DNA from: a bacterium
GTDB lineage: Bacteria; Elusimicrobiota; Elusimicrobia; UBA1565; UBA9628
Length of the DNA: 64,000 nt
NCBI GenBank assembly: GCA_021846045.1
Contig: JAJZCM010000001.1
Span: forward strand, 54,457-118,456
Direction: 5' to 3'
Shown: positions 7,344 through 54,696 of the stretch, piece by piece
Layout of the letters: the number at the start of each line of letters is the position of its first letter
How positions within the stretch are numbered: position 1 is the stretch's first letter
Program-made: the position numbers and the translations under genes
The notes under the pieces: model-generated
The model's input: the letters and a program-made list of their open reading frames with translations, nothing else
Told to the model about the DNA's origin: nothing
The model's database searches: none

Positions 7344-8842
7344 GATTTCCGATGAGAGGCCTGAACTGCATTTCTAAGCCGTGAGATTACCTCTGAGTTA
7401 ATATCTTCCAAATTCAGTTTCCAAGCCCAGTTTCCGGAGGTCGTTGCCGGAATGTTCATTCTCGCTTCCGATCCGAGGCTTAAAACGTCTTGCATCGGAA
7501 TAATGGCTGTGTTGGCCGGCGAATCCAAAAGGGCTTGGATGAGCTTCCAATGATTCTCAGGATCAGATTTTGAGCTATCGGCGTAGACAAGCGCCCGCTT
7601 GACTTCTTCTTGAGGGCCGTTTTGGAGCCAGCCGTTGAGCGTGTCGTTGTCATGCGTTCCGGTGTAGGCGACGGAGTTCGGCGCATAATTTTTAGGCAAA
7701 AATTTTTCTTCGCCGCCAAAGGAAAATTGAAGAATGTTCATGCCGGGAAGATGAAACTCATCTCGCAATCGGTAGACGTCGTCGCCGGCAACGCCTAGAT
7801 CTTCTGCGATGATTTGAAATTCCGGCATCTGGGGGAGAATCGAGGAAAAGAAATCCGATCCCGGACCCTGGACCCATTGGCCTTTGACGGCGGTTTTTTC
7901 TCCGGCCGGAATGCGCCAGTAGCGGCAAAAGCCGATAAAATGGTCCAGGCGCACAGCGCTAAAACGTTGAGCGGAAATTTTAAGGCGATTTTTCCACCAT
8001 TCATAGCCGGATTCTTTTAGGATATCCCAACGATAAAGGGGGTTTCCCCAGAGCTGCCCGGTTTTTGAAAAATAATCAGGGGGAACTCCGGAAACTGCGA
8101 TTGGAGAACCTTGTTTGTCCAAATCGAAAATATTTTGGTGCGCCCAGACGTCCACGCTGTCTTGGGAGACGAAGATTGGGATGTCTCCAATTAGAGATAT
8201 TCCTTTTTCCTCGCAGGCGCTTCTGAAGCGTTTCCACTGCCGATCGAAGAGAAACTGCTCGAATTGATAGTAAAACGAGGTTTCGCCTAAAAAATGAAGA
8301 AGGTCTCTTTCCCAAAAGCGGAAATTGCGGGCGCGAATTTGTTCCGGCCACTCGGCCCAGGGCTTTTGCTTAAAACGCTCTTTAAGCGAGGAAAACCATG
8401 CGTAATCGTTGATCCAGAAGGATTCCCGGTCCAAAAACGAGTGAAATTCAGCCCAGCTTCCGGGGGGATTTTCTTTTTGAAAACGGGAAGAAGCCAGTCG
8501 TAAAACCTTTTCTTTTTCCATCAATGCTTGAGCTGAGCTCAAGCCTCTGAATGCGGGAATTTCCGCGCGGTTCAGAAATCCTTCTTCCGCCGCCAGATCA
8601 AGATTGATAAAAGAAGGGTTTCCGGCAAAAGCGGAGACGCTGCTGTAGGGAGAATTTCCAGTGCCCGTGGGATTAATTGGGAGCATTTGCCAGTATTTTT
8701 GCCCGGTCTCGGATAAAAAATCGATGAAACGGCGCGCCGTGGGGCCCAAATCCCCAGTTCCGACTTCCCCGGGCAAAGAACTGATAGGGAACAATACCCC
8801 GCAGAAACGATTAGTAAACAGGCTCAAATTTTCTTTTCTCAT
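7265..8842 (-). CDS. malQ: 4-alpha-glucanotransferase (amylomaltase)
   Basis: GH77 motifs are present: LPINPTG..SPYSS, GDIPIFV and HDNDT. The last ~25 codons and the stop codon are supplied by the repeat element (…AQVRHSGESRNPVFHETGPRLSSG*). Start chosen at MRKENLSLF. Confidence 0.85.
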   Translation of the reverse strand: MRKENLSLFTNRFCGVLFPISSLPGEVGTGDLGPTARRFIDFLSETGQKYWQMLPINPTGTGNSPYSSVSAFAGNPSFINLDLAAEEGFLNRAEIPAFRGLSSAQALMEKEKVLRLASSRFQKENPPGSWAEFHSFLDRESFWINDYAWFSSLKERFKQKPWAEWPEQIRARNFRFWERDLLHFLGETSFYYQFEQFLFDRQWKRFRSACEEKGISLIGDIPIFVSQDSVDVWAHQNIFDLDKQGSPIAVSGVPPDYFSKTGQLWGNPLYRWDILKESGYEWWKNRLKISAQRFSAVRLDHFIGFCRYWRIPAGEKTAVKGQWVQGPGSDFFSSILPQMPEFQIIAEDLGVAGDDVYRLRDEFHLPGMNILQFSFGGEEKFLPKNYAPNSVAYTGTHDNDTLNGWLQNGPQEEVKRALVYADSSKSDPENHWKLIQALLDSPANTAIIPMQDVLSLGSEARMNIPATTSGNWAWKLNLEDINSEVISRLRNAVQASHRKSTAQVRHSGESRNPVFHETGPRLSSG

Positions 8843-9938
8843 AATTTGCCCGGACGATAGAGACCAGATCGTTGGTATTATCGCCCTTATCATCGAAACG
8901 AGTCATCCCGATAATTCCATCGTACTCGGTTTCCCTGAGGGTCGCGATCATTTTTTTGCGGTCAAACCCCGCTTTCTGAAAGGCCGCGAGAGATATTTTG
9001 GCCGCTTCATAGGCATAGATATCGTAGGTGCGTGGGGTGGTTTTAAATAAGGAGCGATATTGAGAGATAAAGGGATCGGCGCCGGGAAGGAAATCAACGG
9101 GAACCCCACTGATGACAAAATAGGCTCCGTTGGAAGCGGGGCCGGCGAGCTTAAATAAAGTGTCTTCCTTGGATGCTCCGCCTGAAAAAAAGGTTATACC
9201 CAGACGGTTATCACGAAGAGATTTGAGAATGTTTGCCGCTTCCGGGTAAAACCCACCGAAGAAAAGGCCCTGCGGCTTTGAAGCCTCAAGCGCGCTTATG
9301 AGCCCTGAAAGATTGGGCGGGTTGGGGGGAAGAGCGACAAATCCTAGAATTTTTCCACCTTCTTTTTTAAAATCTGAACCAAAGGCTTCTGAAAATTCCA
9401 TTCCGTAAGAGCTTTGATCGTCAACAATAAAAAACGAATGGATGCCGAGACGGGAATAAGCAAAATGAGCGGCGAATTTCGCCTGGGATAAATCAGTCGG
9501 CGGCATGCGGAAAATACTTTTTTTCCATTTCCAAGAGGGGCTTTTTTGCTGGGCGGTGAGAACGCTATTGGCGGCAGAGGGCGTGATCATGGGAATTAAG
9601 GATTCGGCGTAGACAGGAGCCGCGGCTAAGCAAGAATCCGAAGTAAAGTCTCCGATGACGGCAAAGACTTTTGGGTTTTCCGTTATTTGCCCAGCAGCCT
9701 TGACCGCTCCTTGGGGCGTTCCTTGATCGTCGTAAGCGCGGACAACGATATTCCAAGAATTTTCATCGGAATCATTGAACCCCGAAGCGGCTAATTTAAC
9801 GGCGCGGACGATGCCGCCGCCTTCGGCGCCGATAGGACCGGACAGCGGAACGGCAACGGCCAAAATGGCATTGGGTTTGGGGTTTGAGCAAGCGAGGATA
9901 ATCCCCGCGGCCAAAAGGAGCGGAAAAACTTTTCGCAT
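8811..9938 (-). CDS. periplasmic substrate-binding lipoprotein, LivK/branched-chain amino acid ABC-type (type I PBP)
   Basis: A lipoprotein signal (MRKVFPLLLAAGIILAC) is followed by a Leu/Ile/Val-binding-protein-like fold pattern. No permease or ATPase genes are adjacent. Confidence 0.65.
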   Translation of the reverse strand: MRKVFPLLLAAGIILACSNPKPNAILAVAVPLSGPIGAEGGGIVRAVKLAASGFNDSDENSWNIVVRAYDDQGTPQGAVKAAGQITENPKVFAVIGDFTSDSCLAAAPVYAESLIPMITPSAANSVLTAQQKSPSWKWKKSIFRMPPTDLSQAKFAAHFAYSRLGIHSFFIVDDQSSYGMEFSEAFGSDFKKEGGKILGFVALPPNPPNLSGLISALEASKPQGLFFGGFYPEAANILKSLRDNRLGITFFSGGASKEDTLFKLAGPASNGAYFVISGVPVDFLPGADPFISQYRSLFKTTPRTYDIYAYEAAKISLAAFQKAGFDRKKMIATLRETEYDGIIGMTRFDDKGDNTNDLVSIVRANYEKRKFEPVY

Positions 9939-9992
9939 TGGCCCTATTGTATCACTTGGCCGAAGCATAACGTCTTTCCTAGAGACGTTTCG

Positions 9993-10117: not shown

Positions 10118-12130
10118 TCATGAGGCTGGAGACCCTGGTGGCATCGGAGATTTTGACGGCGGAAGCGCCGGTTTAGAAGGAGCCGGATTATTTTTGTCGT
10201 TTGCGGAATTTTTTGTCGAGAGCTGAGTTTTCTTAGAAGAAGATTCTTTGTTTGTTAAATAATCTCGCCCAGCGGCGATTGCAGCTCCAATAACTGCTCC
10301 CGCAGCGCTTCCTATGGCCGCCCCCGGAAGACCGCCCGTCATGGCGCCAAGGATTCCACCCGCAACTCCGACAATCGCCGATCCTTTGAGCATGTCTTTG
10401 ACGTAACTGGTCTTTTTAGGGAGGGAACTTTTGGGCTTTTCTTGTTTGGCCGCGTGGTTTTTTTGGATTGAAGGTTTCCGCATTTTGGAGTTACCCGCAG
10501 TTTTTTTAGAAGGAGTTTGGTTGGGCGTGACCGCTGCCGAAGGCCCGCTCTGCGATAGTGCAGAATCCGACTTATTCTGGGCGAGCTGATTGCCAATTGC
10601 GTTACCGTACGCCATTGTTTTTTGTTTGTTCAAACCGAACGTATCTTTCGGCGTTGGTTGTGGAGATGTGGTGGCGAGGATGCCTCCAGCGGCGATTGCA
10701 GCTCCAATAACTGCTCCCGCGGCGCTTCCTATGGCCGCCCCCGGAAGACCGCCCGTCATGGCGCCAAGGATTCCACCCGCAACTCCGACAATCGCCGCCC
10801 CTTTGAGCATGTCTTTGACGTAGCTGGTCTTTTTAGGGAGGGAACTTTTGGGCTTTTCTTGTTTGGCCGCGTGGTTTTTTGGGGCGGCTTTGTGATGAAT
10901 TGAAGGTTTCCGCATTTTGGAGTTGCCCGCAGTTTTTTTAGAAGGAGTTTGGTTGGGCGTGACCACTGCCGAAGGCCCGCTCTGCGATAGTGCAGAATCC
11001 GACTTATTCTGGGCGAGCTGATTGCCAATTGCGTTACCGTACGCCATTGTTTTTTGTTTGTTCAAACCGAACGTATCTTTCGGCGTTGGTTGTGGAGATG
11101 TGGTGGCGAGGATGCCTTCTGAATTGGGAGAAGACGCAATCGGCGCGGGGGGCTGGAGAGGCTTGGACGGCCCGCCATTGCTTAGGGGGCCAGCTGCAAG
11201 CCCGATTCCGGCTCCAAGGACGGCGGCGGTGATGATCAATCCTGGGGCGGCTCCAAATCCCGTGACCATCAGTCCCGCGGCCAAACCCAAAAGAAGGCCG
11301 GTGGCTATGCGGGAAGTGGCGATATAGTGGCCGACTTTATTAATTCCACCCCAAAGTTTAGCGAAAAAACCGGGTTTTGATTTCTTGGGTTTGTCGGACG
11401 GCGCTTTAGGCGCCGGCGGTGCGGCCACTGGTTTATTAACGTCTTGAGTGAAAGGATTTTGGTTGGAGGTTTGAGATTTCCCACTGGAAGGCGGCGCTGA
11501 TGGGGTTGTGGGGGTTCCTCCAGATGCGTTGGCTTGGCCTTGGGTTTGAGTGGCGAGATTTCCCATTCCTTTTGTTGGTGGGGGCGTCGGGGTTCCTTGA
11601 GCGGCGGTGGATTTGGCAGCTTGGCGGGCTGAACCCATTGCCGCCGACCCTGCGACTTTCTGGTTCAGGGCTTGTCTTCCTTCATTACCCATTCCTGAAT
11701 TGGCTGGATTGGGAGTTGGTCTGGCAATGGAGTCATCCAATTTTTTTTTCTCAGCCGCCGTGGGTTTATATTGTGCAAGAGCCCAAAGAGGAGAACCGGG
11801 CGCGTATTCGGTTATAATGGGCCAGTGATTGGTTATATTGACATTCCTCAGAACCATTCCATGCTTACCAGTTCCTTGAAGAATCGCTTGAGCAAATTTG
11901 CGGCGCGCTTGATTGTCAGCGGCCTCTAGGGCCAATGACTTATCATCCACGCGGGAGACGGAACCGCAGGCATAATAAATGTCCCCTTTCGGATGGATCA
12001 AATGTTTCGGGGATTTTATGCATTCCTGCATTAAGTCATTCGGTGTTGGATTTGCCCAAGAGCTGACTGGAAACAGGCCTAGAGCTAAAATCGGAAAAAC
12101 CGTGGAGATAATCGCGAGTTTCAGTTTCAT
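10118..12130 (-). CDS. secreted low-complexity glycine-zipper repeat protein (N-terminal globular domain, P/T/S/Q-rich linkers, repeated GxxxG membrane-like segments)
   Basis: Signal peptide MKLKLAIISTVFPILALGLFPVSSWA, then a ~100-aa globular domain, then a long compositionally biased region with two ~139-aa near-identical repeats. Each repeat ends in GAAIVGVAGGILGAMTGGLPGAAIGSAAGAVIGAAIAAGG. Start set at the Met preceding the signal peptide. Confidence 0.6.
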   Translation of the reverse strand: MKLKLAIISTVFPILALGLFPVSSWANPTPNDLMQECIKSPKHLIHPKGDIYYACGSVSRVDDKSLALEAADNQARRKFAQAILQGTGKHGMVLRNVNITNHWPIITEYAPGSPLWALAQYKPTAAEKKKLDDSIARPTPNPANSGMGNEGRQALNQKVAGSAAMGSARQAAKSTAAQGTPTPPPTKGMGNLATQTQGQANASGGTPTTPSAPPSSGKSQTSNQNPFTQDVNKPVAAPPAPKAPSDKPKKSKPGFFAKLWGGINKVGHYIATSRIATGLLLGLAAGLMVTGFGAAPGLIITAAVLGAGIGLAAGPLSNGGPSKPLQPPAPIASSPNSEGILATTSPQPTPKDTFGLNKQKTMAYGNAIGNQLAQNKSDSALSQSGPSAVVTPNQTPSKKTAGNSKMRKPSIHHKAAPKNHAAKQEKPKSSLPKKTSYVKDMLKGAAIVGVAGGILGAMTGGLPGAAIGSAAGAVIGAAIAAGGILATTSPQPTPKDTFGLNKQKTMAYGNAIGNQLAQNKSDSALSQSGPSAAVTPNQTPSKKTAGNSKMRKPSIQKNHAAKQEKPKSSLPKKTSYVKDMLKGSAIVGVAGGILGAMTGGLPGAAIGSAAGAVIGAAIAAGRDYLTNKESSSKKTQLSTKNSANDKNNPAPSKPALPPSKSPMPPGSPAS
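10268..11103. repeat. near-perfect tandem duplication, ~417-bp unit x2 (one 18-nt indel), inside the glycine-zipper gene
   Basis: Units 10268-10685 and 10686-11103 are almost identical at the nucleotide level. The antisense shadow ORFs 10339..10596 and 10756..11028 are 95% identical. Confidence 0.85.
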
Positions 12131-12256
12131 TATTGGCGCCTCCCGCCTTCGCCTTATAAATGTAATCCCATCCCCGCGTCCTGTCAAGGGCCTTTTTAAT
12201 TTTTTACTAATTTTTTACTTTTCAAGTGGGGCTGAGAATTTGTAACTTTACAACAC

Positions 12257-27330: not shown

Positions 27331-29901
27331 TTGATGCCGACCATGGTTAAAGATAAGATTGCCTCGCTTAAGAAATCTCTTGAGCTTCAGTCCTTTCTTC
27401 ATAAATCCATGATTTGGTGGCTTCCGCTTCTCTATTTTTTAATTTCTTCTCTTTTCTATTTACGGACATACGATTCCGCTCAGGTCAAGATTACCATCAT
27501 GCAAATGGGGGGATTGGCGCTTTTGACCCTGTGGGTCAGCCGCTTGATTGAATCGGGCGGCGCCGCGCTCAGCCGGGAAGACCTGGTTTGTCTGTCTCCG
27601 TTTTTGGCGTATCTTTTGGTCGGAATTCTTTCCTTCATCCATGCGCCTTACCGAATGGCGAGCGTGGACTTTTTCATCCGGCATTTTTTCTTTATGTCGG
27701 TGGCTCTTATCGTTATCTATGAATTCGACGCCGAAGCGTCAGAGCGTTTGACAAAAATACTCATTTGGACGGCCTGGGTGGCGGTCGGATACGGGTTTCT
27801 CCAGGTCATTGATACCCATTTCTTTCCTCCCGGAGTGGGGCACGGCATCGATCCTTTCATCTGGCGCATGGCCTTTGGCGATCGAGTGTTCTCAACTTAC
27901 GGTAATCCCAACTTTTTCGCGGACTTTTTAGTCATCATCTTCCCCATCTTGTTGTTGCGCTATCTCAAAGGGCGCCGGATGTCCTTGATTCCCTTGATGT
28001 TGATGCTCTTGGTTGATCTCTATTTTACGGGGACCAAGGGGGCTTGGGTGGGTTTTGGAATCGTGATTGTCGTTTTTTGCGTGATCGCCTTCATCTATTT
28101 TAAGGAAATTATTCAGCCGTATCGAAAGTATTTGATTGGGGCGGCAATTGCGGTCTTGCTACCGTTCTCATATATATTCATGAAGGATTTCACGACGCGC
28201 CTGGCTTCGGTTAATTTCCGCTTGTTTACCTGGGAAGCCACTTGGGAAATGATCATGACCCAGCCCTTTATCGGGACCGGCGTGGGGAGTTTTCCTCCGG
28301 TTTATCCTGCTTTTAGGCGCCCGCCGATTTTTCATATCGAGGCCAAGCATAATACGGAAACCGATCACGCGGAAGACGAGTATTTGGAAGAGTTGTTCGA
28401 CAATGGAATTCTGGGCTTTGGCGTATTTTTGTGGTTGATCATCAGCACCTTGGTCGTCGGTTTTAAGTCTCTAGGGCAGATGCTGGATGTTTCCCACTCA
28501 TCAAAAGATAAAAAAATTCCGCCGAGGGTCTTTGACCTTTTGGGCTACATGATCGCGTTTATCGGCATGTTGTGTCATAATTTTTTCGACGTGAGTCTCC
28601 GTTTTGTCTCTTCGGGGGTTTATTTGGGCCTTTTGCCTGGGATGATCGTAAATCTCTCCCGAGGAAAGGGCCTTTATGAATCGCATACTCTTCAGGAAAA
28701 AAATGTCAAACCGGGCGAAGCGGCTCCGGAGTCGTTTTGGAAAACCCTGTCTGAGTTCTTAATCTGGCCGGTTCGTTTGGCTGCCTGGGGCGGGCTTTTC
28801 TATATCGCCTTCTTGATTCTGACTCAATTTAACGCCTTGCAGGGCCCTATTGATCGCCTAACGATGGGAGGGGAAATTCTTCAGTGGTGGCTTTCTTGGG
28901 GAACCTTATTGGCTTGCGTTCTTGGATTGGGATTTGTTTTTTTTCGACTGATCCTTCTGTCGGAGAATCCCTTTGTCGGGGCGCTCATCTTGTCGGCCCT
29001 GCCGATTCTTTATACTTTTTGGGGTTATTTTAAAGCCGATATCCATCACAATATCGCCATCTATTTTTCAAAGGAACATGATTGGGATAAGGCCTTGTCC
29101 GAATATCAAACGGTGCATCGCCTCGATCCTAATTTTGCGATGGCGCTCTACTTCATGGGGAATGTCTTCAACGACCGGTTTAATATGCAAAAAACTTATA
29201 ATCCTTCCTGGGGAGACAAGAACAACGTTTCGCGGGATGATTATGAGCGCGCCTTGGACGCCTATAATGAAGTTCGCAAGCTTTCCCCCAATTACGTTCA
29301 GATGCATTATCAGGTGGGCGTCCTTCATCTTAAGCGCGCCCAGTGGGCGATAGACCACGGTCATCCCGAAGACGCGTTGACGTATTTTAACCGCGCGCTG
29401 ACCCGCTTTAAGCTTTATAAGACCATTGATCCCGTCTTTGGGCCCAATTTCCTGAGAATAGGCCAGGTCTATATGATGGAGCATCGCTATGCGGACGCGG
29501 TCAAGGCCTACCAAGAATATATTTTGGCGGATAAATGCGCGGTTGATCCTTCCTTGATCGTCAAGCCTTTCCTTAGAAAAACCATTCTCAGTTATCAAAC
29601 CTATGTTCATGTCCCCGGAATTCCCTATCCGGTTCATCGTCACCCCGCTCCCGACAAGCATGCGGAAGGGGCCGAGGTTTACACCAGTTTGGGGAACGCT
29701 TATTTTATGATGAATAATTTTGAGGCGGCCAAGGCCGCTTACCAGGAAGCTCTTCAATATGATCCAAATTTTGCCCAAGCTCAACATAACATAGCCGCCG
29801 TCTCGCTGCGGCTTAAAAATCCAAAAGGGAAGCCCTTGCTCCAAAATCCTTCAGAAGCTTCTCCACATTCTTCCGGCTATGAGATCATTCAGAAAAAGTA
29901 G
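27331..29901 (+). CDS. Wzy_C (O-antigen ligase / PglL-type oligosaccharyltransferase-like) polytopic membrane protein with C-terminal TPR domain
   Basis: More than 10 TM helices and the Wzy_C-like loop PFIGTGVGSFPPVYPAFR...HIEAKHNTETDHAEDEYLEELFDNGILG. The C-terminal ~350 aa are TPR-like. Confidence 0.65.
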   Translation: MMPTMVKDKIASLKKSLELQSFLHKSMIWWLPLLYFLISSLFYLRTYDSAQVKITIMQMGGLALLTLWVSRLIESGGAALSREDLVCLSPFLAYLLVGILSFIHAPYRMASVDFFIRHFFFMSVALIVIYEFDAEASERLTKILIWTAWVAVGYGFLQVIDTHFFPPGVGHGIDPFIWRMAFGDRVFSTYGNPNFFADFLVIIFPILLLRYLKGRRMSLIPLMLMLLVDLYFTGTKGAWVGFGIVIVVFCVIAFIYFKEIIQPYRKYLIGAAIAVLLPFSYIFMKDFTTRLASVNFRLFTWEATWEMIMTQPFIGTGVGSFPPVYPAFRRPPIFHIEAKHNTETDHAEDEYLEELFDNGILGFGVFLWLIISTLVVGFKSLGQMLDVSHSSKDKKIPPRVFDLLGYMIAFIGMLCHNFFDVSLRFVSSGVYLGLLPGMIVNLSRGKGLYESHTLQEKNVKPGEAAPESFWKTLSEFLIWPVRLAAWGGLFYIAFLILTQFNALQGPIDRLTMGGEILQWWLSWGTLLACVLGLGFVFFRLILLSENPFVGALILSALPILYTFWGYFKADIHHNIAIYFSKEHDWDKALSEYQTVHRLDPNFAMALYFMGNVFNDRFNMQKTYNPSWGDKNNVSRDDYERALDAYNEVRKLSPNYVQMHYQVGVLHLKRAQWAIDHGHPEDALTYFNRALTRFKLYKTIDPVFGPNFLRIGQVYMMEHRYADAVKAYQEYILADKCAVDPSLIVKPFLRKTILSYQTYVHVPGIPYPVHRHPAPDKHAEGAEVYTSLGNAYFMMNNFEAAKAAYQEALQYDPNFAQAQHNIAAVSLRLKNPKGKPLLQNPSEASPHSSGYEIIQKK

Positions 29902-31708
29902 CCGCAAATTTCTTCCCGCTCTTTTAATCGCCTTTGCGGCTTCTTTGACCGCCGCTGTCAGGGCGGCAACTTTTCCCGCGACCGACGAGGCCGTTTTTTC
30001 TCCGATGCAAGAGGAAATGGCGCGTTCGCTCAAAAATTTGAAAGAGGGAGATTTTGGGCCGCCTTATTTTATCGCTTACCGCATGGTCGTTGGCCGGGGA
30101 ATGGATATCTCGGCGTCTTTTGGCGGAGTTGTATCCGAAAACAAATATCATTCCCAGACTCTTTTCTCCGAAGTCAGATATGGGAATAAAAAAATGGATA
30201 ACACCTCGATTCAATATCAGGGGCTGAGCGCAGAGGCGCCGCTCAGCGGAAAAGAATTACGCGAGAATTTATGGATATTGACGGATAAGGCCTATAAGGA
30301 CGCGGTTGCCGGATATCTGGAAAAAAAAGCGAAACGGGTTACGGAATTTAGAGCGGAAAATCTGCCGGATTTTACCGATGAACCCTCGACGCGTTCCTAT
30401 GAGCCTCAAGAGGCTCCGAGTTTTGACGATGCCGCAGCCCGTTCCCTCGTTAAAAATTTAAGCCGGCTTTTGCGTTCCTATCCTTATATTTATCATGGGA
30501 CTGTGATTTTGCATTTAGGATGGTCGCGCCGGTACCTTTTGACCTCCGAGGGGACCAAGGTCTCGGGGCCGTATGAGAATTTGCCCAATTACCTCAGTAT
30601 TGACGTCAATTCTCGAGCGAAAGACGGGCTTAAGGTCAGCAATTACCGCGAGTGGGTTTTTAAAGATATGAAAAGTCTTCCGCCTCGGGAGAAACTAGCA
30701 AGAGCCGTGAAGCGCTTGGCGCTTGAGCTTAAAGAGTTGAGAGACGCCCCCTTAGAGACACCCGTCGCCGCTCCGACAATTTTGGATCCGGAAATGACGG
30801 GGGTCTTGTTTCATGAAGCGTTGGGACACAAGTTAGAGGGGGAGCGGCAAAGGGATCCCTTGCAAGGGCAAATATTTAAAGGCATGGTCGGCAAAAAAAT
30901 TATTCCAAGTTTCTTGTCAGTTATTGACGACCCAACGATGAGTTTTTTTAAAGGCGTTTCGCTTCACGGTCATTACCGGATTGATTCCGAAGGCGTCCCA
31001 TCTGAAAGAGTCGTTCTGGTTCGCAATGGTATTTTGGAAAATTTCCTGATGTCGAGATGGCCGCTTAAGGATTTTTCCCATTCAAACGGGCATGGGCGGG
31101 CTTCTTCAAGACTTCGTCCCTTGGGGCGCATGGCGAACTTGATGATTGAGGCTAAAAATCCTCTAAGTCCCGCCGCGCTTAAAAATAAATTACTGAAGCT
31201 GCTTCGCTCGGAACACAAGCCTTACGGCTTTAGGATTGTGGGCGCTTACGGCGGAGACAATCCAAGCGAGAGAACCCAGGCTCAGACGCTGCAGCTTCGG
31301 CCGCGTTTAGTTTACCGAATTTCGGCCAAGGACGGAAAAGAGACCTTGGTAAGAGGCGTTAAAATCGTCGTGACCCCCTTGGTCGTTTTAAACCGCATTT
31401 TGGCGGCTTCAAACGACGAGGCCCTCTCAAATCCTTACTTTTGCGGGGCGGAATCAGGATGGGCGCCGGTCGATCAAATCGCTCCGAGCGTTTTAGTTTC
31501 GGAGCTTGAGTTTGAGCGTCTGCCTGAAAATCGCTTAAAACCGCCGATTTTGCCCTCTCCGTTGACACATTTGCTAAAGCACGGAGAGGACGCTTGGCCT
31601 CCAGCCTTGATCGCGCCCTCTCCGTTGACACATTTGCTAAAGCACGGAGAGGACGCTTGGCCTCCAGCCTTGATCGCGCCTTCTCCGTTGACGCATGGAA
31701 AAAATTGA
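29879..31708 (+). CDS. secreted TldD-like metallopeptidase (HExxGH present)
   Basis: Signal peptide, then a TldD/PmbA fold pattern with HEALGHKLEGE. The C-terminus is extended by a 63-nt tandem duplication. Confidence 0.7.
   Translation: MRSFRKSSRKFLPALLIAFAASLTAAVRAATFPATDEAVFSPMQEEMARSLKNLKEGDFGPPYFIAYRMVVGRGMDISASFGGVVSENKYHSQTLFSEVRYGNKKMDNTSIQYQGLSAEAPLSGKELRENLWILTDKAYKDAVAGYLEKKAKRVTEFRAENLPDFTDEPSTRSYEPQEAPSFDDAAARSLVKNLSRLLRSYPYIYHGTVILHLGWSRRYLLTSEGTKVSGPYENLPNYLSIDVNSRAKDGLKVSNYREWVFKDMKSLPPREKLARAVKRLALELKELRDAPLETPVAAPTILDPEMTGVLFHEALGHKLEGERQRDPLQGQIFKGMVGKKIIPSFLSVIDDPTMSFFKGVSLHGHYRIDSEGVPSERVVLVRNGILENFLMSRWPLKDFSHSNGHGRASSRLRPLGRMANLMIEAKNPLSPAALKNKLLKLLRSEHKPYGFRIVGAYGGDNPSERTQAQTLQLRPRLVYRISAKDGKETLVRGVKIVVTPLVVLNRILAASNDEALSNPYFCGAESGWAPVDQIAPSVLVSELEFERLPENRLKPPILPSPLTHLLKHGEDAWPPALIAPSPLTHLLKHGEDAWPPALIAPSPLTHGKN
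31555..31698. repeat. 63-bp tandem duplication (2.3 copies), each unit holding an 8-bp-stem hairpin CTCTCCGT..ACGGAGAG
   Basis: Units 31555-31617 and 31618-31680 are identical, followed by a partial third unit. Encodes PSPLTHLLKHGEDAWPPALIA x2 at the C-terminus of the TldD-like protein. Confidence 0.85.
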
Positions 31709-31710
31709 CA

Positions 31711-31772: not shown

Positions 31773-31773
31773 T

Positions 31774-35674: not shown

Positions 35675-35720
35675 CAGAAAAGAATGTCTCTGTTACACTA
35701 ACTTAGGACACGGAGGAATC

Positions 35721-35939
35721 GTGGAAAAACCTCAGGAATTGCTTTTTGTTATAGAAGAATCGCCTGGAGGAGGCTATATCGCCTCGGCCCTTGGCCCAAG
35801 CATTGTTACTGAAGCCGATGATTGGGAGTCGCTTAAAAAACGGATATCCGATGCGGTTTTGTGCCATTTTGAAGATCCGGCATTTCGCCCTCGCATCATT
35901 CGGCTTCATGCGGTCAAGGATGAGTTTTTGGCTTTATGA
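35721..35939 (+). CDS. hicB: HicB-family antitoxin (UPF0150-like, short form)
   Basis: LLFVIEESPGGGYIASALGPSIVTEADDWESLKKRISDAVLCHFED matches the HicB N-terminal RNase-H-like fold pattern. 4-nt overlap with the downstream hicA. Confidence 0.55.
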   Translation: MEKPQELLFVIEESPGGGYIASALGPSIVTEADDWESLKKRISDAVLCHFEDPAFRPRIIRLHAVKDEFLAL

Positions 35940-36178
35940 GGCTTCCCCGCGATATTGGGGGAGAGGAACTGGCCCGCCTGCTTATTCGCTATGGTTACAT
36001 GGTGACCCGCCAAACTGGCAGCCATATTCGACTAACAACTCAGCGAGAGGGAGAGCATCATCTGACGATTCCAGCGCATACTGATCTTCGTTTAGGGACG
36101 CTTAATTCTATCCTCCAAGAAGTGTCTCGGCATATCAAGAAAGATAAGAACGACTTAATTCAAGAATTATGGCCGTGA
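35936..36178 (+). CDS. hicA: HicA-family mRNA interferase toxin
   Basis: GYMVTRQTGSHIRLT...HLTIPAH.DLRLGTLNSILQ fits the YcfA/HicA dsRBD-like motif set (GSH, P.H, GTL..IL). Confidence 0.65.
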   Translation: MRLPRDIGGEELARLLIRYGYMVTRQTGSHIRLTTQREGEHHLTIPAHTDLRLGTLNSILQEVSRHIKKDKNDLIQELWP

Positions 36179-36199
36179 CTGGGGAGTGAGGGTGTTTTA

Positions 36200-37222
36200 A
36201 TGTCGGATTCTCCGTTTTTTTCAATTGTCTTACCCACCTACAATCGCGCCGTGATGTTGCCGACGGCACTTGAAACTCTCCGTCGCCAAACATTTACTGA
36301 TTTTGAAGTTTTAATTGTTGATGATGGATCCACCGATAATACTCCTGAAATTGTTAAGACTTGGACGCAGGACTCGCGCTTCAAATATAAATTCTTAGAT
36401 CATGTCGGCAATATGCCATGCCGGAATAAAGCCCTTGAAATGGCTTCGGGGATATGGATTACCAATATTGATTCCGATGATCTTTGGCTGCCCAATAGGC
36501 TTGAGAAATTTGCGGCATATATTCAGCGGCATCCACAGGTGGGATTTATTTTCTCGAATGGGTATCTTTACCGGTTTGGGCGTATTATTGGGGTGGATTT
36601 TGATCCGTTGAAATCGCTTCCCGAGGGGAAAATGGCGGGGCATTATGCCGTGGGAAGATCGGGATTGCCGTATCTGACCACAAATCTCGCGATTCCCAGG
36701 GCTCTTTATGACAAATATGGCCATTATCGCAAAGATATGGTGATTCTCGACAATGAACTCTATGCGCGGATGCTCGCCGATGGAGTTGAAGTGGGCATTA
36801 TCTATGAGCCTTTGGCTATTCGCAGAATACATGGAGGCCAGGTTACTCATCAGTGGCTTGGCTCCTATCCGGAATCAATTGAAGCCCTAAAAGCCGCAAA
36901 GCCTTCTGCCGAGGTTTTTGATCAGGAGAAACTCAATCTTGTCCTAGAATTTTCTGATTACCTATGGCGTAATTTAGAGGGGAAAAAAGCGCGCTGTTTT
37001 ATGCTGGAAGAATTGGGAGAGAAGGCCCCAAAAACACGGCTTTATTTTCTTACTTTTATCCCGGCTCCCCTGCTGTTTTTAGCTAAAAAATTACGGAGAC
37101 TGTATTTAATCCTCATCCATTCCCCGATTTTTGCGAGCCCTGAGACCAAAAAAATATACCAGTTTCTTAATCCCTTGTTGATCAGCGAGGGAATTCGCGA
37201 GAGAGATAGTTGGTCGAGTTGA
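36200..37222 (+). CDS. GT2 glycosyltransferase
   Basis: FSIVLPTYNRAVML, VLIVDDGSTD, NIDSDD (DXD). Confidence 0.8.
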   Translation: MSDSPFFSIVLPTYNRAVMLPTALETLRRQTFTDFEVLIVDDGSTDNTPEIVKTWTQDSRFKYKFLDHVGNMPCRNKALEMASGIWITNIDSDDLWLPNRLEKFAAYIQRHPQVGFIFSNGYLYRFGRIIGVDFDPLKSLPEGKMAGHYAVGRSGLPYLTTNLAIPRALYDKYGHYRKDMVILDNELYARMLADGVEVGIIYEPLAIRRIHGGQVTHQWLGSYPESIEALKAAKPSAEVFDQEKLNLVLEFSDYLWRNLEGKKARCFMLEELGEKAPKTRLYFLTFIPAPLLFLAKKLRRLYLILIHSPIFASPETKKIYQFLNPLLISEGIRERDSWSS

Positions 37223-37233
37223 AGATCGTCGAT

Positions 37234-38784
37234 TCAATCAGCGGTGGCAATGCTTTTATTAAAAGAAACTCTCAAAATATTGGATGGTAAAATGGTTTGT
37301 TGCCCCATCGAGTGCTCGTATCTTTGAGGGGTTCGGCTTGGATTGAAGGGAATTTTTAGTTTTTGACGAACATCGGATTCCGTTTGATTGCGGAGCTTCA
37401 CTAAATCCTCAGCCGAGACGTAATCAGTATAAACAAAGGATTGATACCCGCCGTTGGGATCGCCTTTGTAGTAATCGGCGACTTCGGTGTAGTCCACTTC
37501 CTGGGAAAAAAGGCGATCTCCATTTTTCTTGTAAGTATAAACCCATAGATTCCTCTTGCCGGGGTCCTGAACTGCATGATCGTAATAGGGAGTTCCTGGG
37601 TAAGTGGTGATAATAGTCACGTCAAAATCATCGGGTTTGACTTCCAAAAGCCAGTCGCGCGTGTCTCGAATAGTCTCTGGCGATTCCCCTGGATGTCCGA
37701 TGGACATTAAGGCTTTTATCTTAAGTCCATGTCTGCGGGCGATTTCAACGCAGCGGGTATTTTCTTCCCGCGCGGCTTTTTTGTTGATATTTTGAAGAAT
37801 TCGGGGAGACCCAGATTCAAAACCGGTCAATATCCAACGAAAACCCGCTTTCCGCATCGCCTCGGCTTGTTCATCAGTAAAAAGCTGAGACTTAATAAAG
37901 CCCCTGAGGCGAAATTCAACGCCCAATTGGTCTTGGAGAGAACATATTTCACGCATCAGTTCGACCATTTTGGGATTGACGTTGAGTTCGTCATCATAGA
38001 GCATAAATCCGCGTACCCCGTAATCGCGGAACATTTGCTTCATTTCAAGAACGATGTTCTCGGTCGTCCGCATTCGTATTCGGCGCAGCATCGGAGATTC
38101 TCGCCCTCCGCAAAATCCGCATTCGAAAGGGCATCCAAGCTGCGCGATTAAAGACAACGCCCGCAGGCCTTCTATCTCATAGCGGTAGCTGTCAACGTCC
38201 ACAAGGCGTCTGGCGGGAAACGGCAATTCCGTTAGGCGCGCATTATTTAAAAAGAGCGGAGAATGCGGATCGTCGGCGTCGACGAGTTTTGGGGGATTCT
38301 CGCTTAAGGCGGAAAAAATCGCCTCCTCACCGTCTCCAGCAACTAAGATATCATAAAGTTCGGCCAGCTTTTGATAGGCGAGAGTCGCACGGCCCTCTAT
38401 CCCGCGACGTTTCTCTCCTTTGTAAGCGGCATTGACTAGAGTGATATGCGGTCCGCCGAGAATAATGCGCGCGCGTGGAGATTGGGCGCGTAAAACGCGC
38501 AGTATTTTGGTCGAAGCCGGGAGTTGTGGAGTTGTGGCGGTCAGTCCGAAAAATCGGGCTTTTGACGATGAGGCATGAAGGGCCGCGACTTCTTCATAGT
38601 TTTCGACTCCGGACAAGTCCAGCATTTCGACCGCATATCCCTCGCGCTCTAAAACGGCCGCGACCTTGAGTATGCCTAAAGACATAAAAACGCGCTCATC
38701 CAGCAAGAATAAAGAGGGCGGGACAATGAGGCAAACAGTTTGTCTTTCTCGACTATTGCGGGTGGAAGTCGCTCCGGCAAGCAT
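37234..38784 (-). CDS. B12-binding domain radical SAM protein (class B)
   Basis: N-terminal cobalamin-binding Rossmann region (CLIVPPSLF...GILKVAAVLEREGY) and the radical-SAM cluster motif CPFECGFCGG. Start chosen at an internal Met; the longest ORF runs to 38874. Confidence 0.75.
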   Translation of the reverse strand: MLAGATSTRNSRERQTVCLIVPPSLFLLDERVFMSLGILKVAAVLEREGYAVEMLDLSGVENYEEVAALHASSSKARFFGLTATTPQLPASTKILRVLRAQSPRARIILGGPHITLVNAAYKGEKRRGIEGRATLAYQKLAELYDILVAGDGEEAIFSALSENPPKLVDADDPHSPLFLNNARLTELPFPARRLVDVDSYRYEIEGLRALSLIAQLGCPFECGFCGGRESPMLRRIRMRTTENIVLEMKQMFRDYGVRGFMLYDDELNVNPKMVELMREICSLQDQLGVEFRLRGFIKSQLFTDEQAEAMRKAGFRWILTGFESGSPRILQNINKKAAREENTRCVEIARRHGLKIKALMSIGHPGESPETIRDTRDWLLEVKPDDFDVTIITTYPGTPYYDHAVQDPGKRNLWVYTYKKNGDRLFSQEVDYTEVADYYKGDPNGGYQSFVYTDYVSAEDLVKLRNQTESDVRQKLKIPFNPSRTPQRYEHSMGQQTILPSNILRVSFNKSIATAD

Positions 38785-38872
38785 AAGCGAATTATAGTAA
38801 AATGGAAATCCCTTTATGCTGCTACGAGAACGATTCCCAAGTCCGAGAGAACGCAAGAACAGGGCCGTTTTC

Positions 38873-39487
38873 ATGGACAGAGACGGTGTGATTATTAAAG
38901 AAGTAAATTACCTCTCGCGCCTTGAGGATATGAAAATTATCTCCGGAGTTGCGGATTCGATCGCGAAACTGAGAAAAGCGGGCTTTAAGATGATAGTTAT
39001 CAGCAATCAGTCGGCCGTCGCTCGCGGACGCCTGAGCCTTTTTAAACTTCATAAAATTACGCGCGTTTTACTCCAAATGATTCGGGAAAAAAATTCCAAG
39101 GCTTGCATTGACGCCGTTTACTATTGTCCGCATCATCCTGATTTCGGCAAACCCTGCTCTTGCCGGAAACCCGGGATTGGGCTTCTCCTTAAAGCGCAAA
39201 AAAAATTCAACATTGATTTGAAATCCTCCTATTTTGTCGGAGACTCAAGCGCCGATATCCTAACGGCTCGGCGGGCAGGATGCGTTCCTCTGCTGGTGAA
39301 AACGGGGAAAGGTGGAAAAGACGGACTCTACAAGGCAAAGCCGAAAAAAATATTTAAAAACCTTTCCGAGGCTTCCCGCTGGATTTTAACTGCTCAGGTT
39401 CGTCATTCCGGCGAAAGCCGGAATCCAGTTGGAAACCTGGACCCCGACTTTCGTCGGGGTGACGTGAGTAGTTGCGCTGGATTTTAA
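38873..39487 (+). CDS. gmhB: D-glycero-D-manno-heptose 1,7-bisphosphate phosphatase (HAD-IIIA)
   Basis: FMDRDGVI (DxD), ISNQS, YYCPHHPDFGKPCSCRKP (Zn-binding Cys cluster), FVGDSSAD. The last ~28 codons and the stop codon come from the repeat element (AQVRHSGESRNP...). Confidence 0.8.
   Translation: MDRDGVIIKEVNYLSRLEDMKIISGVADSIAKLRKAGFKMIVISNQSAVARGRLSLFKLHKITRVLLQMIREKNSKACIDAVYYCPHHPDFGKPCSCRKPGIGLLLKAQKKFNIDLKSSYFVGDSSADILTARRAGCVPLLVKTGKGGKDGLYKAKPKKIFKNLSEASRWILTAQVRHSGESRNPVGNLDPDFRRGDVSSCAGF
39392..39475 (-). repeat. double-hairpin dispersed repeat copy (reverse orientation)
   Basis: GTTCGTCATTCCGGCGAAAGCCGGAATCC...TGGACCCCGACTTTCGTCGGGGTGACGTGAGTAGTTGC. Confidence 0.85.
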
Positions 39488-45667: not shown

Positions 45668-45690
45668 TCAGCGAACCCGTCCTGCAAAAG

Positions 45691-45776
45691 TCGTCACCCC
45701 GACGAAAGTCGGGGTCCAGGCCCACGCGAAAGTCTGGATTGCGGCTTTCGCCGCAATGACGGGTGAGTTTGCCGAA
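45691..45776 (+). repeat. variant copy of the double-hairpin repeat; stem 2 carries compensatory changes (TTGCGGC-TTTC-GCCGCAA)
   Basis: GTCACCCCGACGAAAGTCGGGGTCCAGG...TGGATTGCGGCTTTCGCCGCAATGACGGGTGAG. Confidence 0.8.
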
Positions 45777-45849
45777 TATCTACAATTGGACATTGACTTG
45801 GCACAGCCTATATAGACTATACTTATCCTAGGCCTCCTTCACAAATAAA

Positions 45850-51952: not shown

Positions 51953-53980
51953 TTAGGGTTCATTAAGGGAAAAAAGCATGCAGCCGCTAGAACGGTAAAG
52001 AAGGGGGGATTTTTTAAGAAGGTCTCTGAGGCGGATTTTGCCTTGCGGAGACAACTTTCCCAAGGAATCTCCCAGGCGAATCATTTCTTGCGGAACCCAT
52101 AAAATTTCAGTGATTCCTTGCCGCTTAAGATGCGCGGCAAGTTCTTTCTCGCTAGAGGCGAGGTTTGAGTCGTCAATGAAAAAGTTCGGCGAGAAAATGG
52201 ATGAGGCGATGGAACCCGCCGGAGCGTAATAGCTGCGCTCTTCACCCATAATCAGAATCTTATCATTTCGCTTCGCCTGCTCAGCGGCGTAATGCGCGCA
52301 GGGGTAATAAAGGAGTTTTTGAGACAGATAGTCCGTTCTGGTTTTCAGTCCCAGCAAGGTTTCTCCTCCATTAAAAACCCCGAAATTAACAAAGAGAAAT
52401 AAAAGCAAATGCGTCAAAATAATCAAAGAGATTGCCGAAGTTAAAATAATTTGTGTTGAACGGTCCAGACGTTCCTTGAGTTTGAGAAGCGCGTTTCCGG
52501 CCAACAGACAGAGAAGAGGGCAAAGAGCGATTAAAAATCTCAAAACAACGCCGGTCAAAAACCAAATCAGGATATAAACTAAAGAAAATACGACTAAGCG
52601 CTTTAAAAAAAGATTCTTTCTGGAAGCCCAAACGGCCAAAGGCAGGGACCAGAATAAAATTTCCCAACCAAGTCCGCCCAAGACGTCCATTCCGCGCCCG
52701 AAATGAAGGCTGTTGGTTAAAAGCATCACGGGAAAATCAGCCCAGCGCCGGTAGTTAAGCCCGCTGCGGTATTCGGCAAGGGCGTTGAAATAATTATGAG
52801 CGATTTCTTTATTCCATCCGATTTGTGAGGCCTTAAAGAAAGGGTTAAAGAACGGAAAAAAGGGATTGCCGACTTCTATCCAATTTTTGAGCATCCAAGG
52901 GGAGAAGAGAATCGTCACGATTGCGGTAAATAGCGCCGCGTCTTTGAGCGCTTCCTTCCTTGATTCCGATGGAAAAAAAACGCGGCTCCACAAGGTCATT
53001 CCTAAAATTCCCGCCGTAATCCCCGCGTAGTATTTGGTTCCCAAGGCCAGCCCGCAAAACACGGCCGACAAAATCAGCCAAGCCTTGGAACCTGAGGAAG
53101 TCGAGCGTATTTCTTCCCAGCGAAGAAATGAGAGGACCGAAGCCGTAGTCCACAACATCACCAAGGGTTCAACGTAAGAAGAGGCGGATAAAAGCATTGC
53201 CGAGCTTTGCGTAACAAGTAAAAGAATCGACAACATGACCGCTTTGATGGGAATTTCAAGCTGGGCGATTTCAAAAATCCACCAGGCGCTCAGAAAAAGC
53301 GAAACCCACATGAACATTTGAGCGAGAATGTCCGATTTAAACAGCAGCGATAAGGTAAACAGCATCTCGCCGTTTTGTGGGAAATGGCTGTAGAGAAGCC
53401 AAGGCAGTTTGACCAGCCCATGGGCTTGAACATAGGCGGCGGCTAAAGGTAAATGATAGACCAAGGAATCATACTGATGTGGGGGAATTAAACAGCACCA
53501 AAGAACGAGCAGAAGGGCGAAAAAAACGATCAGGGATTCAAAAGGGTTGCCGGTCAGAATTTTTTTCGGGGAATTAAATGCGCGAAAAAGGGCTTTTAAT
53601 TCCGCAAATCCCAGAATCCAAAGAATGGAGAGAAGTAAAGTCAGGGTGAGGGGGGTCAGATAATGAATGGCGGCAAGAAAAAAAACGCTCAGGCTTAAAA
53701 TTCCCAGTCCTAATGTCGCGCCGATCAAGGTTTTTTGCGAGGGGCTGATATCAGAAAAACCAAGCAAGGTAACTATCAGGCGCCCGGCTCCCGAAGCGGC
53801 CGATAAGATGAGTAACAGTTCCATGAAAGCTGCAAATCCAGGGAAAAAGGGAAATAAAAAATAGGAGCCGAACGTATAAAGGGAGAAAAAGAGCGTTGCA
53901 AGGGCTGCGCCGAAAAAAAATAATTTTCCGTCTTCGGTCATCTCAAAGCTTCTGGGCTTTTGGGCTGGGGGGAGAGCCAT
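51953..53980 (-). CDS. large polytopic membrane protein, probable GT-C fold glycosyltransferase
   Basis: About 14 TM helices, the early loop [17 protein letters not shown], and a C-terminal soluble domain. The family assignment is tentative. Confidence 0.5.
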
Positions 53981-54696
53981 TTGAAGTGAACAAGCCCCAG
54001 ACGATGGGGAATGTATTGAGAGATAATTTTGAGCGTGGAAAGTCCGTAGATTACGCTTCTTTTAAAATTAATGGAGGAGGCTTCGGGAAAGTATCTTGCG
54101 GCCACGGGAATATCTCCAATTTTAAGGTGGCAGGCCGCGGCCTGAAGCAAAAACTCCTGGTCAAAGACGAAATCGTCGGAATTGTCCTGCCAGCGGATTG
54201 TTTCAAGGCATTTCCGGGAATAGGCCCTTAAGCCTGAATGCCATTCCCCTAAGTTTTGACCCGTGCAGGTGTTTTCAAGAATGGTGAGGAAACGGTTGAA
54301 GACATATTTATACAAGGGCATTCCGCCCTCCAGCGCTTCCCACCGGGTTCTGATGCGGTTTCCCAAAACGACGTCGCAGATTCCGTTTTTAATGAGAGAA
54401 ATCATGATGGGCGCCAGTCTTGCGTCATATTGATAGTCCGGATGAATCATGATGACGACATCGGCCCCGCGTTTAAGAGCTTCTAGGTAGCAAGTCTTTT
54501 GATTGCCGCCATAGCCCTTGTTTTTTTCATGGACGATGGTGGTTAGCCCCAGTTTTTTTGAAAGGGCGGCGGTGCCGTCTTTGGAGCAATCATCCACCAG
54601 AATAATCTCGTCTACGCTTCCTAGCGGGATGTCAAAAACGGTCTTTTCCAAGGTCTTTTCCGCGTTGTAAGCGGGTAAAACCGCGATCGTTTTCAT
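53938..54696 (-). CDS. GT2 glycosyltransferase, DPM1/ArnC-like
   Basis: [24 protein letters not shown], and a DXD region. Confidence 0.8.

Follow-up and report, generated by a model that had tools for sequence, protein, structure and literature searches.

A near-palindromic repeat of about 93 nt (92–93 nt) forms the 3′ ends of two genes for unrelated enzymes, gmhB and malQ, in a 64,000-nt stretch of DNA from an Elusimicrobiota bacterium of the lineage UBA9628 (contig JAJZCM010000001.1 of assembly GCA_021846045.1, positions 54,457 to 118,456; hereafter the window). The repeat is a non-autonomous mobile element, a miniature transposable element with inverted repeats (MITE), with a core of repetitive extragenic palindromic (REP) sequences of the CGTC-1 type. 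Its insertion produces a 9-bp target duplication and prefers runs of A or T. The tail of GmhB is an insertion that replaced the native end of the gene beyond the conserved fold, as a direct comparison with an unoccupied allele of the same species demonstrates. Very probably, the tails that the enzymes share are a by-product of the same mobile DNA being read in the same phase.

Occupied and unoccupied alleles of gmhB

The gmhB open reading frame (ORF; positions 38816 to 39487, plus strand), tail included, encoded 223 residues. Pfam and Protein Data Bank (PDB) comparisons identified the product as a HAD-IIIA phosphatase of the GmhB type, a D,D-heptose-1,7-bisphosphate phosphatase. The gene was the first of a heptose-nucleotide operon and was followed by genes for a nucleotidyltransferase (NTP-transferase), a GHMP kinase, and a SIS isomerase. 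One copy of the element (39387 to 39475, plus strand) was located at its 3′ end.

When this locus was compared by blastn with that of a conspecific strain, represented by three contigs (L001–L003, from GCA_021829385.1 and two European Nucleotide Archive assemblies), the site in the conspecific strain was unoccupied, and the inserted unique DNA spanned positions 39390–39474. The nucleotide identity was 98.6% on both sides of the site. The unoccupied site read ...CCCGCTGGATTTTAAAACAATG... / ...GAGGCTTCCCGCTGGATTTTAAAACAATGAAAG... without interruption, and the window contained 98 extra nucleotides there, with GCTGGATTT on both flanks. This target duplication was located at 39378–39386 (left copy) and 39476–39484 (right copy), both on the plus strand and 98 nt apart, and was single in L001–L003. 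In-silico excision of the element together with one flank restored the protein end ...SRWILKQ followed by the stop codon. The closest GmhB orthologs (90, 78, and 75% identity) were 183–185 residues long and ended in ...ASRWILKQ.

The insertion lay exactly two codons from the native stop. As a result, residues KQ were lost, and the last two codons and the stop were displaced. In the native state, stop and start overlapped as ATGA, the TGA ending gmhB and the ATG starting the downstream NTP-transferase gene. In the occupied allele, a tail of 32 residues and a TAA stop were encoded at 39389 to 39487 (plus strand). The right copy of the duplication contributed codons to the terminal ...CAGF of the tail, and the TAA (39485–39487) was native flanking DNA directly after this copy, read in a new frame and placed 4 nt upstream of the downstream ATG (39492). 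Through the duplication, the sequence around the downstream start codon was preserved. The copy was arranged as TAACTGCTCAGGTT, CGTC hairpin 1, an 8-nt spacer, hairpin 2 ending in GACG, and TGAGTAGTTGC, which was 4 nt shorter than the canonical form. Translation would enter it in the phase NTA-ACT, read TAQVRHSGESRNPV, and then shift frame; because the spacer was 4 nt shorter and shifted the frame, GmhB avoided the internal TGA of the element. The tailed protein (P0001) was found on five contigs from independent assemblies.

Upstream of gmhB, the conspecific strains also differed in the interval between a PmbA/TldD-like gene and gmhB itself (35656–38980 in the window; 1981–3135 in L001). The window contained a family-2 glycosyltransferase gene and a radical S-adenosylmethionine enzyme gene, and L001 contained a different family-2 glycosyltransferase gene. 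Approximately 165 nt at the 5′ end of gmhB did not align between the two. The interval looks like a strain-variable cassette for glycan synthesis, with a recombination breakpoint inside gmhB.

The tail of MalQ

The malQ ORF, tail included (7265 to 8893, minus strand), encoded a GH77 4-alpha-glucanotransferase according to Pfam and PDB matches; other annotations gave 525 residues with the initiating Met at 8842. The element copy at its 3′ end (7252 to 7344, minus strand; CAACCGCTCAGG...GAGTAGTTAC) was the most diverged, with 84–87% identity, a spacer sequence of its own, and no recognisable target duplication. The tail region (7265 to 7343, minus strand) encoded 25 residues, TAQVRHSGESRNPVFHETGPRLSSG, followed by a TGA (7265–7267) located inside hairpin 2 of the element.

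The Pfam GH77 match ended at residue 496 of 542. MalQ orthologs with 76–78% identity (P0122 and P0123) ended in ...ARRIS at the residue aligned with the left edge of the element, and other orthologs extended 6 residues past that edge. The solved Thermus amylomaltases (500–502 residues) aligned as far as their C-terminal residue, which fell 2 residues ahead of the tail. These protein ends support the reading that the MalQ tail, too, would be an insertion beyond the conserved fold, for which the support is at the protein level only. A protein with the same tail and a single residue different from the MalQ of the window (P0263) was found on four contigs.

The conspecific MalQ (P0264) ended in ...HRKSTA and lacked 23 of the 25 tail residues. 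At the conspecific locus, the homology stopped 8 nt inside the left end of the element, and a different, convergent gene followed; these 8 nt are either an element remnant after rearrangement or native sequence. The malQ–glgB spacer of the window was 120–200 nt longer than in relatives, and aligning the 3′ flank of malQ at the DNA level with that of orthologs (77–87% identity) was uninformative. In addition to the element, about 175 nt of unique sequence (7076–7251) lay in this spacer, the total in relatives being 42–72 nt. A strong sigma-70-like match (TTTACA-16-TATAAT, 11 of 12 positions) was present within it at 7117–7144 on the plus strand, opposite to malQ and glgB.

A preliminary description of this DNA had stated that the repeat supplies the same tail and stop codon to two unrelated enzymes, antisense to each gene and in the same reading frame. 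The enzymes were indeed unrelated by Pfam and PDB comparison, and the two ORF ends were as it had quoted them, that of MalQ being ...HRKSTAQVRHSGESRNPVFHETGPRLSSG / ...SHRKSTAQVRHSGESRNPVFHETGPRLSSG followed by a stop. One repeat did make both tails, but the identity covered only the 14 residues TAQVRHSGESRNPV, and the gmhB frame shifted in the middle of the element. The stop codon was not shared: that of MalQ was the TGA in hairpin 2, and that of GmhB was the TAA in native DNA outside the element. The orientation and the entry phase were common to both, the terminal TAAC or CAAC beginning at codon position 2 in each tail, but the term antisense is arbitrary for a near-palindrome. The further claims that native gene ends had been replaced beyond the conserved fold, and that a selfish repeat had remodelled protein termini, held up. 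In the ortholog alignment, the GmhB orthologs ended in ...WILKQ and the MalQ orthologs ended at or within 6 residues of the junction; the unoccupied site and the excision agreed with this for gmhB, and the amylomaltase ends for malQ at the protein level.

Architecture of the element

Alignment of the copies gave the consensus TAACTGCTCAGGTT-CGTCATTCCGGCGAAAGCCGGAATCCAG-N12-CTGGACCCCGACTTTCGTCGGGGTGACG-TGAGTAGTTA(C). The core was a head-to-head heterodimer of two inverted REP hairpins, each tagged with CGTC and separated from the other by a 12-nt spacer. A 10-bp outer inverted repeat, TAACTRCTCA, enclosed the hairpin pair, so that the two arms were complementary over approximately 40 bp. The element was too small to encode a transposase. 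Each hairpin module was composed of CGTC, an 8-bp stem, a GAAA loop, and a CCAG tail. CGTC started both modules (CGTCATTCCGGCGAAAGCCGGAATCCAG, and CGTCACCCCGACGAAAGTCGGGGTCCAG on the other arm), and the tags pointed outward in every full copy. The stems, both of 8 bp, were ATTCCGGC/GCCGGAAT and ACCCCGAC/GTCGGGGT. The second had a C-G pair at position 2 instead of T-A and started with AC, not AT, a variant that was common in other phyla too. The tetranucleotide GTAG was present in the right outer arm.

In RNA folding, a single strand formed one hairpin of approximately 40 bp with −48 to −54 kcal/mol and z values of −5.7 to −7.8. The hairpin motifs occurred 5 and 7 times in the window, compared with an expectation of 0 in shuffled sequences. 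Of 137 hairpin modules among the matches listed, which came from a wide range of phyla, 133 had fully complementary stem variants, and a compensatory stem change was present at 45736–45760 in a copy of a second subfamily. Because of these complementary stems, the compensatory change, and the stable fold, the hairpin structure can be regarded as a conserved feature. The Rfam scan at gathering thresholds identified no family in the window, which also contained no tRNAs.

The reading frames of the element differed between its orientations. In one orientation, each frame held one stop, either TAA at the first codon or TGA after 25 or 27 codons, and the 25-codon frame read TAQVRHSGESRNPENCCSGPRLSSG. 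In the opposite orientation, one frame was open throughout (30 residues in the six-frame table).

Target duplication and target preference

The lineage was sampled over approximately 125 kb, consisting of the 64-kb window and 61 kb of extra loci (L138, L140, and L142). This sample contained 14 copies, of which 10 overlapped coding sequence. A 9-bp target duplication was found at 10 of the 11 copies of subfamily 1, perfect in five and with one or two mismatches in five; it was absent at malQ. The duplication boundary was ambiguous by about 1 nt, and the true length could be 8–10 bp. The direct repeats flanking canonical copies were exactly 102 nt apart, and in the variants this spacing changed to 98 nt (gmhB, with the 4-nt shorter spacer), 79 nt (a 23-nt deletion), and 153 nt (a 51-nt nested insertion). 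The element and its duplication therefore added up to 102 nt, or 34 codons, and in-silico excision of the element with one flank gave back intact ORFs in seven genes.

A run of at least four A or T was present in 7 of the 10 duplicated targets, compared with 12.6% of all 9-mers (binomial p=4e-5), and the targets had no common motif besides these runs. The insertion-site preference is for A/T runs and not for gene ends as such. Thus, of the preferences proposed in the preliminary description, a bias of insertion site was confirmed, and a preference of frame or selection for the tail was not established.

All 13 contigs found through neighbouring genes carried the element, and neither this search nor the conspecific malQ locus provided a second clean pair of occupied and unoccupied sites besides gmhB. 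When a metagenome collection was scanned with the right terminus, three matches were obtained. Only one of them (L135) was related, a small element with the same outer termini around different CGTC hairpins. The subfamily is essentially absent from the scanned collection.

Other copies at gene ends and within genes

A third enzyme with the tail was encoded by gidB/rsmG on L142. The protein ended in ...LILCRKA followed by TAQVRHSGESRNPEDRRSGPRLSSG and the stop, and the orientation, phase, and internal TGA were as in malQ. The duplication (GTCGGAAAG) was perfect, the insertion lay exactly two codons from the stop, and residues GD were lost; the native end would have been ...CRKGD. On the same contig, the last ~37 residues of recO came from the second (sister) subfamily and ended in ...SLGPRESLDSGFRRNDGQEFASL, the stop overlapping the start codon of glyQ. 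An exhaustive protein search with the 32-residue GmhB tail, a query that was too short, gave seven matches, mostly junk ORFs across REP arrays. With a six-frame concatenated protein query, real proteins were matched only in the fully open frame, so that no census of the tail frame was possible.

Other copies were read through in the open frame. Mid-protein copies were present in a YdjC-like protein and in a member of the 6-phosphogluconolactonase family; YidD and orf45850 had theirs at the N-terminus, and orf57048 also contained one. Excision in silico restored an intact ORF in each case. The canonical copy in orf45850, a polytopic membrane protein, lay at 45889 to 45981 (minus strand) with the duplication CGACTTTT(G/T). 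It formed a 34-codon in-frame insertion after residue 13, read in the sole open frame of the element (31 residues). The copy in orf57048 (57294 to 57437, minus strand) was a composite with the degenerate duplication AACCGGCGG / GACCGGAGG; a 51-nt insertion was nested in the loop of hairpin 1, and the total insertion was 153 nt. The nested sequence (57361–57411), CCGAGCATTGGGGAGGAAGCGCCGCTTCCAAGTTCGTTGGAAAGCGGCCGA, contained small palindromes of its own and a CCGA direct repeat. Because the same composite was translated in the unrelated protein P0259, the composite is itself multi-copy.

Two copies were located at gene junctions. The copy at 31706 to 31775 (plus strand), with a 23-nt internal deletion and the duplication GGAAAAAAT at 31697 and 31776, sat in the former 17-nt overlap of two genes. 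The TGA stop of the upstream PmbA/TldD-like ORF (29879..31708) was the first codon of the degenerate element terminus (TGAC), and the ATG of the downstream ORF (31774) lay at the right end of the element and extended into the second duplication copy. The two genes were intact because the duplication left a stop on the left and an ATG on the right. A gene for a family-2 glycosyltransferase (53938..54696) had a canonical copy (54705 to 54797, minus strand) immediately upstream of its ATG. The duplication of this copy, CAAAAATCA, was perfect, with copies 102 nt apart, and the same spacer was present in 13 contigs.

The second subfamily was represented in the window by a divergent copy (45680 to 45790, minus strand) in the divergent intergenic region upstream of orf44384, with the compensatory stem change TTGCGG/CCGCAA and different outer ends. 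This subfamily (window 45680–45790; L140 14190–14290; L142 2330–2440) had the same CGTC hairpins and the right end TGACGAATYGTAAAGAGACTTA.

Further repeats of other kinds were observed in the window. The 3′ end of the PmbA/TldD-like ORF 29879..31708 contained a perfect 2 × 63-nt tandem duplication (31552–31677) directly upstream of the deleted element copy, which repeated a 21-residue unit (PSPLTHLLKHGEDAWPPALIA); the homologue had 548 residues in the conspecific L001, compared with 609 in the window. Another short repeat family, TCTTTC...GCACGCTCTCGCTTCGCGAGCAAGGAACGCAG, contained a GCTCTCGC/GCGAGC hairpin and was found at 9973–10090 and 32733–32808 in the window and at 20–51 and 2972–3013 in L143. 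ORF 8811..9968 had two tandem copies of this family upstream, a single inverted copy lay at 32.7 kb, and the family was also present in the conspecific strain. Tandem direct repeats of ~417–432 nt (93–97% identical) were located at 10269–11117 inside ORF 10118..12187 (689 residues). This ORF had no Pfam match, and the repeats suggest a protein with long internal repeats.

Origin of the shared tails

The evidence from gmhB and the duplicated targets points to a mobile element whose copies would be filtered by the genes they hit. A transposase acting in trans with staggered cuts presumably moves the element; mobilisation in trans by an enzyme making 9-bp staggered cuts is suggested by the target duplication only. 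Copies would survive only where they are harmless. For those read in the open frame, this would include permissive loops and N-termini; in the final few codons of a gene, any state would be harmless. GmhB, MalQ, and GidB were each hit about 0–6 codons from the stop (exactly two for GmhB and GidB; the malQ junction is placed approximately, from the protein alignment). The MalQ and GidB frames end at the internal TGA of the element, and the gmhB frame skips this TGA and runs to the TAA just past the duplicated target. The shared tail appears to be tolerated rather than needed. It is dispensable, as the conspecific GmhB has no tail and the conspecific MalQ lacks 23 of the 25 residues.

The phases of the copies can be read in the same way. 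In all eight translated copies, the terminal TAAC started at codon position 2. The internal copies are in the opposite orientation because only there is a frame fully open, and the five antisense copies share one phase because selection leaves only that open frame. The GmhB, MalQ, and GidB tails all read TAQVRHSGESRNP... in the sense orientation and the phase NTA-ACT. Two copies would agree in orientation and phase by chance in 1 of 6 cases. Five truncating states are possible at 3′ ends, and three copies were in one state, which gave the tails, and one had a stop at the first codon. Target choice at A/T runs and purifying selection in a compact genome are sufficient to explain the copies at gene boundaries.

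Several observations weigh against this explanation. A Pfam-type search of the large ORFs of the window and of the 61 kb of extra loci returned no transposase, and in neither was a longer element with these termini found. The malQ copy had neither a target duplication nor a clean unoccupied site, and the downstream gene differed in the conspecific strain; because of this gene and the break in homology, the history of the malQ copy includes at least one further rearrangement. All four 3′-end copies were sense and all three tail-giving copies were in one phase, which is somewhat more uniform than a neutral filter would give. In addition, the tails as translated protein are predicted from the ORFs.

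The outer inverted repeat, the 9-bp duplication, the A/T-run targets, the presence and absence within one species, and the 34-codon unit make the element look active. On these grounds, it is conceivable, although we hold the idea tentatively, that a CGTC-tagged REP dimer has been caught in this Elusimicrobiota lineage as a recently active, duplication-generating MITE.

The uniformity of the 3′-end copies could also mean that phase and orientation are not accidental. Transposition would then be coupled to codon phase through a target motif, or positive selection would act on the TAQVRHSGESRNP... tail, or on the sense RNA hairpin at the mRNA 3′ end, which might serve to stabilise, to mark for degradation, or to regulate. 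Orientation and phase agree in three independent insertions (malQ, gmhB, and gidB), the fourth 3′-end copy (orf29879) is also sense, and the left flanks of malQ and gidB are alike, with TCGGAAAT and TCGGAAAG, respectively, directly before CAAC. Furthermore, the sense RNA hairpin was slightly more stable than the antisense one (−52.3 vs −48.3 kcal/mol), and the tailed alleles persist in several assemblies. However, the sample is tiny: with gidB as the sole independent test, p was ~0.2–0.33 for three to five truncating states, and p was ~0.14 for at least three of four copies in one of five states. Also against this reading, the remaining duplications share no motif beyond A/T runs, the tail is absent or nearly absent in conspecific strains, the tails diverge after 14 residues, and a terminator scan was negative at both the gmhB and malQ copies. 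A frame preference is possible but not established, and a non-accidental origin of the phase is unlikely.

It is equally improbable that the tails are rarely or never found in mature proteins. In such a case, ribosomes would stall at the hairpin, or an enzyme such as RNase III would cleave it; either event would leave non-stop mRNAs for rescue mediated by transfer-messenger RNA, and the insertion would mainly lower or modulate expression. The hairpin is very stable, with the stop inside it (malQ and gidB) or right after it (gmhB), and the same stalling or cleavage was raised for the EnhC protein extended by the QMITE2 element of Coxiella (PMC5896051). However, in-frame copies in the middle of essential-type genes (6-phosphogluconolactonase family, YidD, and YdjC-like) imply that ribosomes pass the same hairpin.

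The inverted REP-doublet architecture and the GTAG in the right outer arm recall a REPIN, a REP doublet that would be spread by a REP-associated tyrosine transposase (RAYT), which is IS200/IS605-like, or by recombination, and the 51 CGTC dimers compared from other phyla showed neither a duplication nor an outer inverted repeat. This origin is highly improbable given the 9-bp duplication at 10 of 11 copies with the matching unoccupied site, the hairpin-adjacent tag CGTC in place of GTAG, and a search of the ~125 kb that returned no RAYT-like gene or Pfam match. Single-strand Y1 transposition (IS200/IS605) is not known to create duplications.

That the tails are artefacts, with an upstream stop concealed by a frameshift or an error of assembly, or that they are an ancestral C-terminal extension held in common, is scarcely credible, because the same tails recur across independent assemblies (P0001 on five contigs and P0263 on four), orthologs and solved structures are without them, and an unoccupied allele exists. 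The ends of the element (...TAAC / GTTA...) also resemble those of an integron attC site. This candidate was rejected: the copies were dispersed singly in and between housekeeping genes with 9-bp duplications, and the sole tyrosine recombinase was XerC/D-like and adjoined topA and dprA.

Comparison with known repeats

The mobile element described here belongs to a known class (CGTC-REP, Rickettsia palindromic element (RPE)-like, MITE), and the extension of proteins by it is a known phenomenon. By definition, CGTC-1 REPs have the tag CGTC, a stem of 8 bp whose first residue is A, a loop of 4 nt, and a short tail fitting CCA. They occur predominantly as head-to-head dimers, and complementary A-T pairs are almost invariable at the first and second stem positions (PMC3733652). 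The group includes Neisseria dRS3 and Rickettsia conorii RPE-6 (Di Nocera, De Gregorio & Rocco 2013, PMC3733652). The element here shared the tag, the stem, the loop, the CCA tail, the outward tags, the heterodimer, and the dispersed multi-copy distribution. It was likewise located near ORF 3′ ends and sometimes intragenic, and published dimers encode 20–30 residues (PMC3733652). Some CGTC dimers of H. neapolitanus lie in a longer palindrome (PMC3733652), as does the element here. In contrast to published CGTC-1 REPs, for which no duplications are reported (PMC3733652), it had a 10-bp outer repeat, a 9-bp duplication, and an unoccupied site. No associated transposase has been found for CGTC REPs, and Elusimicrobiota are not among the host phyla listed (PMC3733652).

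In a scan of species-representative genomes, the same 28-nt module was found in at least Chloroflexota, Alpha-, Beta-, and Gammaproteobacteria, Thermodesulfobacteriota, Omnitrophota, Verrucomicrobiota, Gemmatimonadota, Binatia, Bipolaricaulota, and other Elusimicrobiota. In 51 CGTC dimers from other phyla, duplications of 7–11 nt did not exceed the control level, and no inverted repeat was found beyond the tags. CGTC-1 dimers in another outer repeat, (C)TCGTAAAAAGTC...GACTTTTTACGA(G), were observed in Thermodesulfobacteriota and 'delta' metagenome-assembled genomes (L022, L025, L037, L049, L083, L104, and L126). One and the same hairpin core seems to have been enclosed in different termini in different lineages.

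RPEs are palindromic repeats inserted in-frame in unrelated housekeeping genes without destroying them (Ogata et al. 2000, 2002; PMC10969869, PMC3733652), and RPE-4 and RPE-6 carry the CGTC tag (PMC3733652). In-frame insertion in protein-coding genes (YdjC-like, 6-phosphogluconolactonase-family, YidD, orf45850, and orf57048) was the common feature. The first-reported RPEs are ~150 bp and come from obligate intracellular Alphaproteobacteria, whereas the element here is ~93 nt and comes from an environmental Elusimicrobiota metagenome-assembled genome. The likeness is one of description, the published placing of RPE-6 in CGTC-1 being the only link.

QMITE2 of Coxiella burnetii is a small MITE with a REP-type palindrome and variable direct repeats of 7–11 nt, located mostly at ORF 3′ ends (PMC5896051). 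In the Dugway strain, the final 33 residues of EnhC come from an in-frame QMITE2, and the stop follows directly after it (Wachter et al. 2018, PMC5896051). The outcome at GmhB was the same. However, QMITE2 is 150–190 bp, has a GTAG REP, serves as a target for IS1111, and extends one gene, compared with three enzymes here. The Chunjie MITE of Geobacter uraniireducens is reportedly inserted at a gene junction inside an operon without disruption (Chen et al. 2008, cited in PMC5896051); the gmhB/NTP-transferase junction and the 31.7-kb junction are parallels, although the sequence is unrelated. REPINs share the inverted REP doublet that folds to one long hairpin, and differ in the GTAG tag, the association with a RAYT, and the lack of a target duplication. 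Repeat-derived 3′-terminal gene extension is an established category (PMC3184786), and in-frame RPE fusions have been reviewed (PMC10969869). A literature text search gave no matches for peptide strings such as PAFAGMT.

Implications

The new features are the host lineage of this class of repeat, the sharing of one tail by three enzymes, and a CGTC dimer packaged with an outer repeat and a 9-bp duplication, with an unoccupied site within the species. The result is a clean, datable example of a selfish palindromic repeat editing protein ends, in which an occupied and an unoccupied allele of one species show the native stop, the residues lost and gained, and the preserved downstream junction. 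For annotation, the stretches TAQVRHSGESRNP..., ...VIPAKAGIQ..., ...WIPAFAGMT..., and ...LDSGFRRNDEPEQL in such genomes, whether at the C-terminus, at the N-terminus, or inside a protein, are repeat-derived and should not be counted as conserved domains or serve homology inference. The duplication and the outer inverted repeat also bear on how CGTC-tagged REPs move. If the element is an active MITE, insertion sequences with TAACTRCTCA termini and 9-bp duplications would provide a handle for the enzyme that moves repeats of the CGTC/RPE type, and protein 'decoration' in the style of Rickettsia would operate in free-living bacteria.

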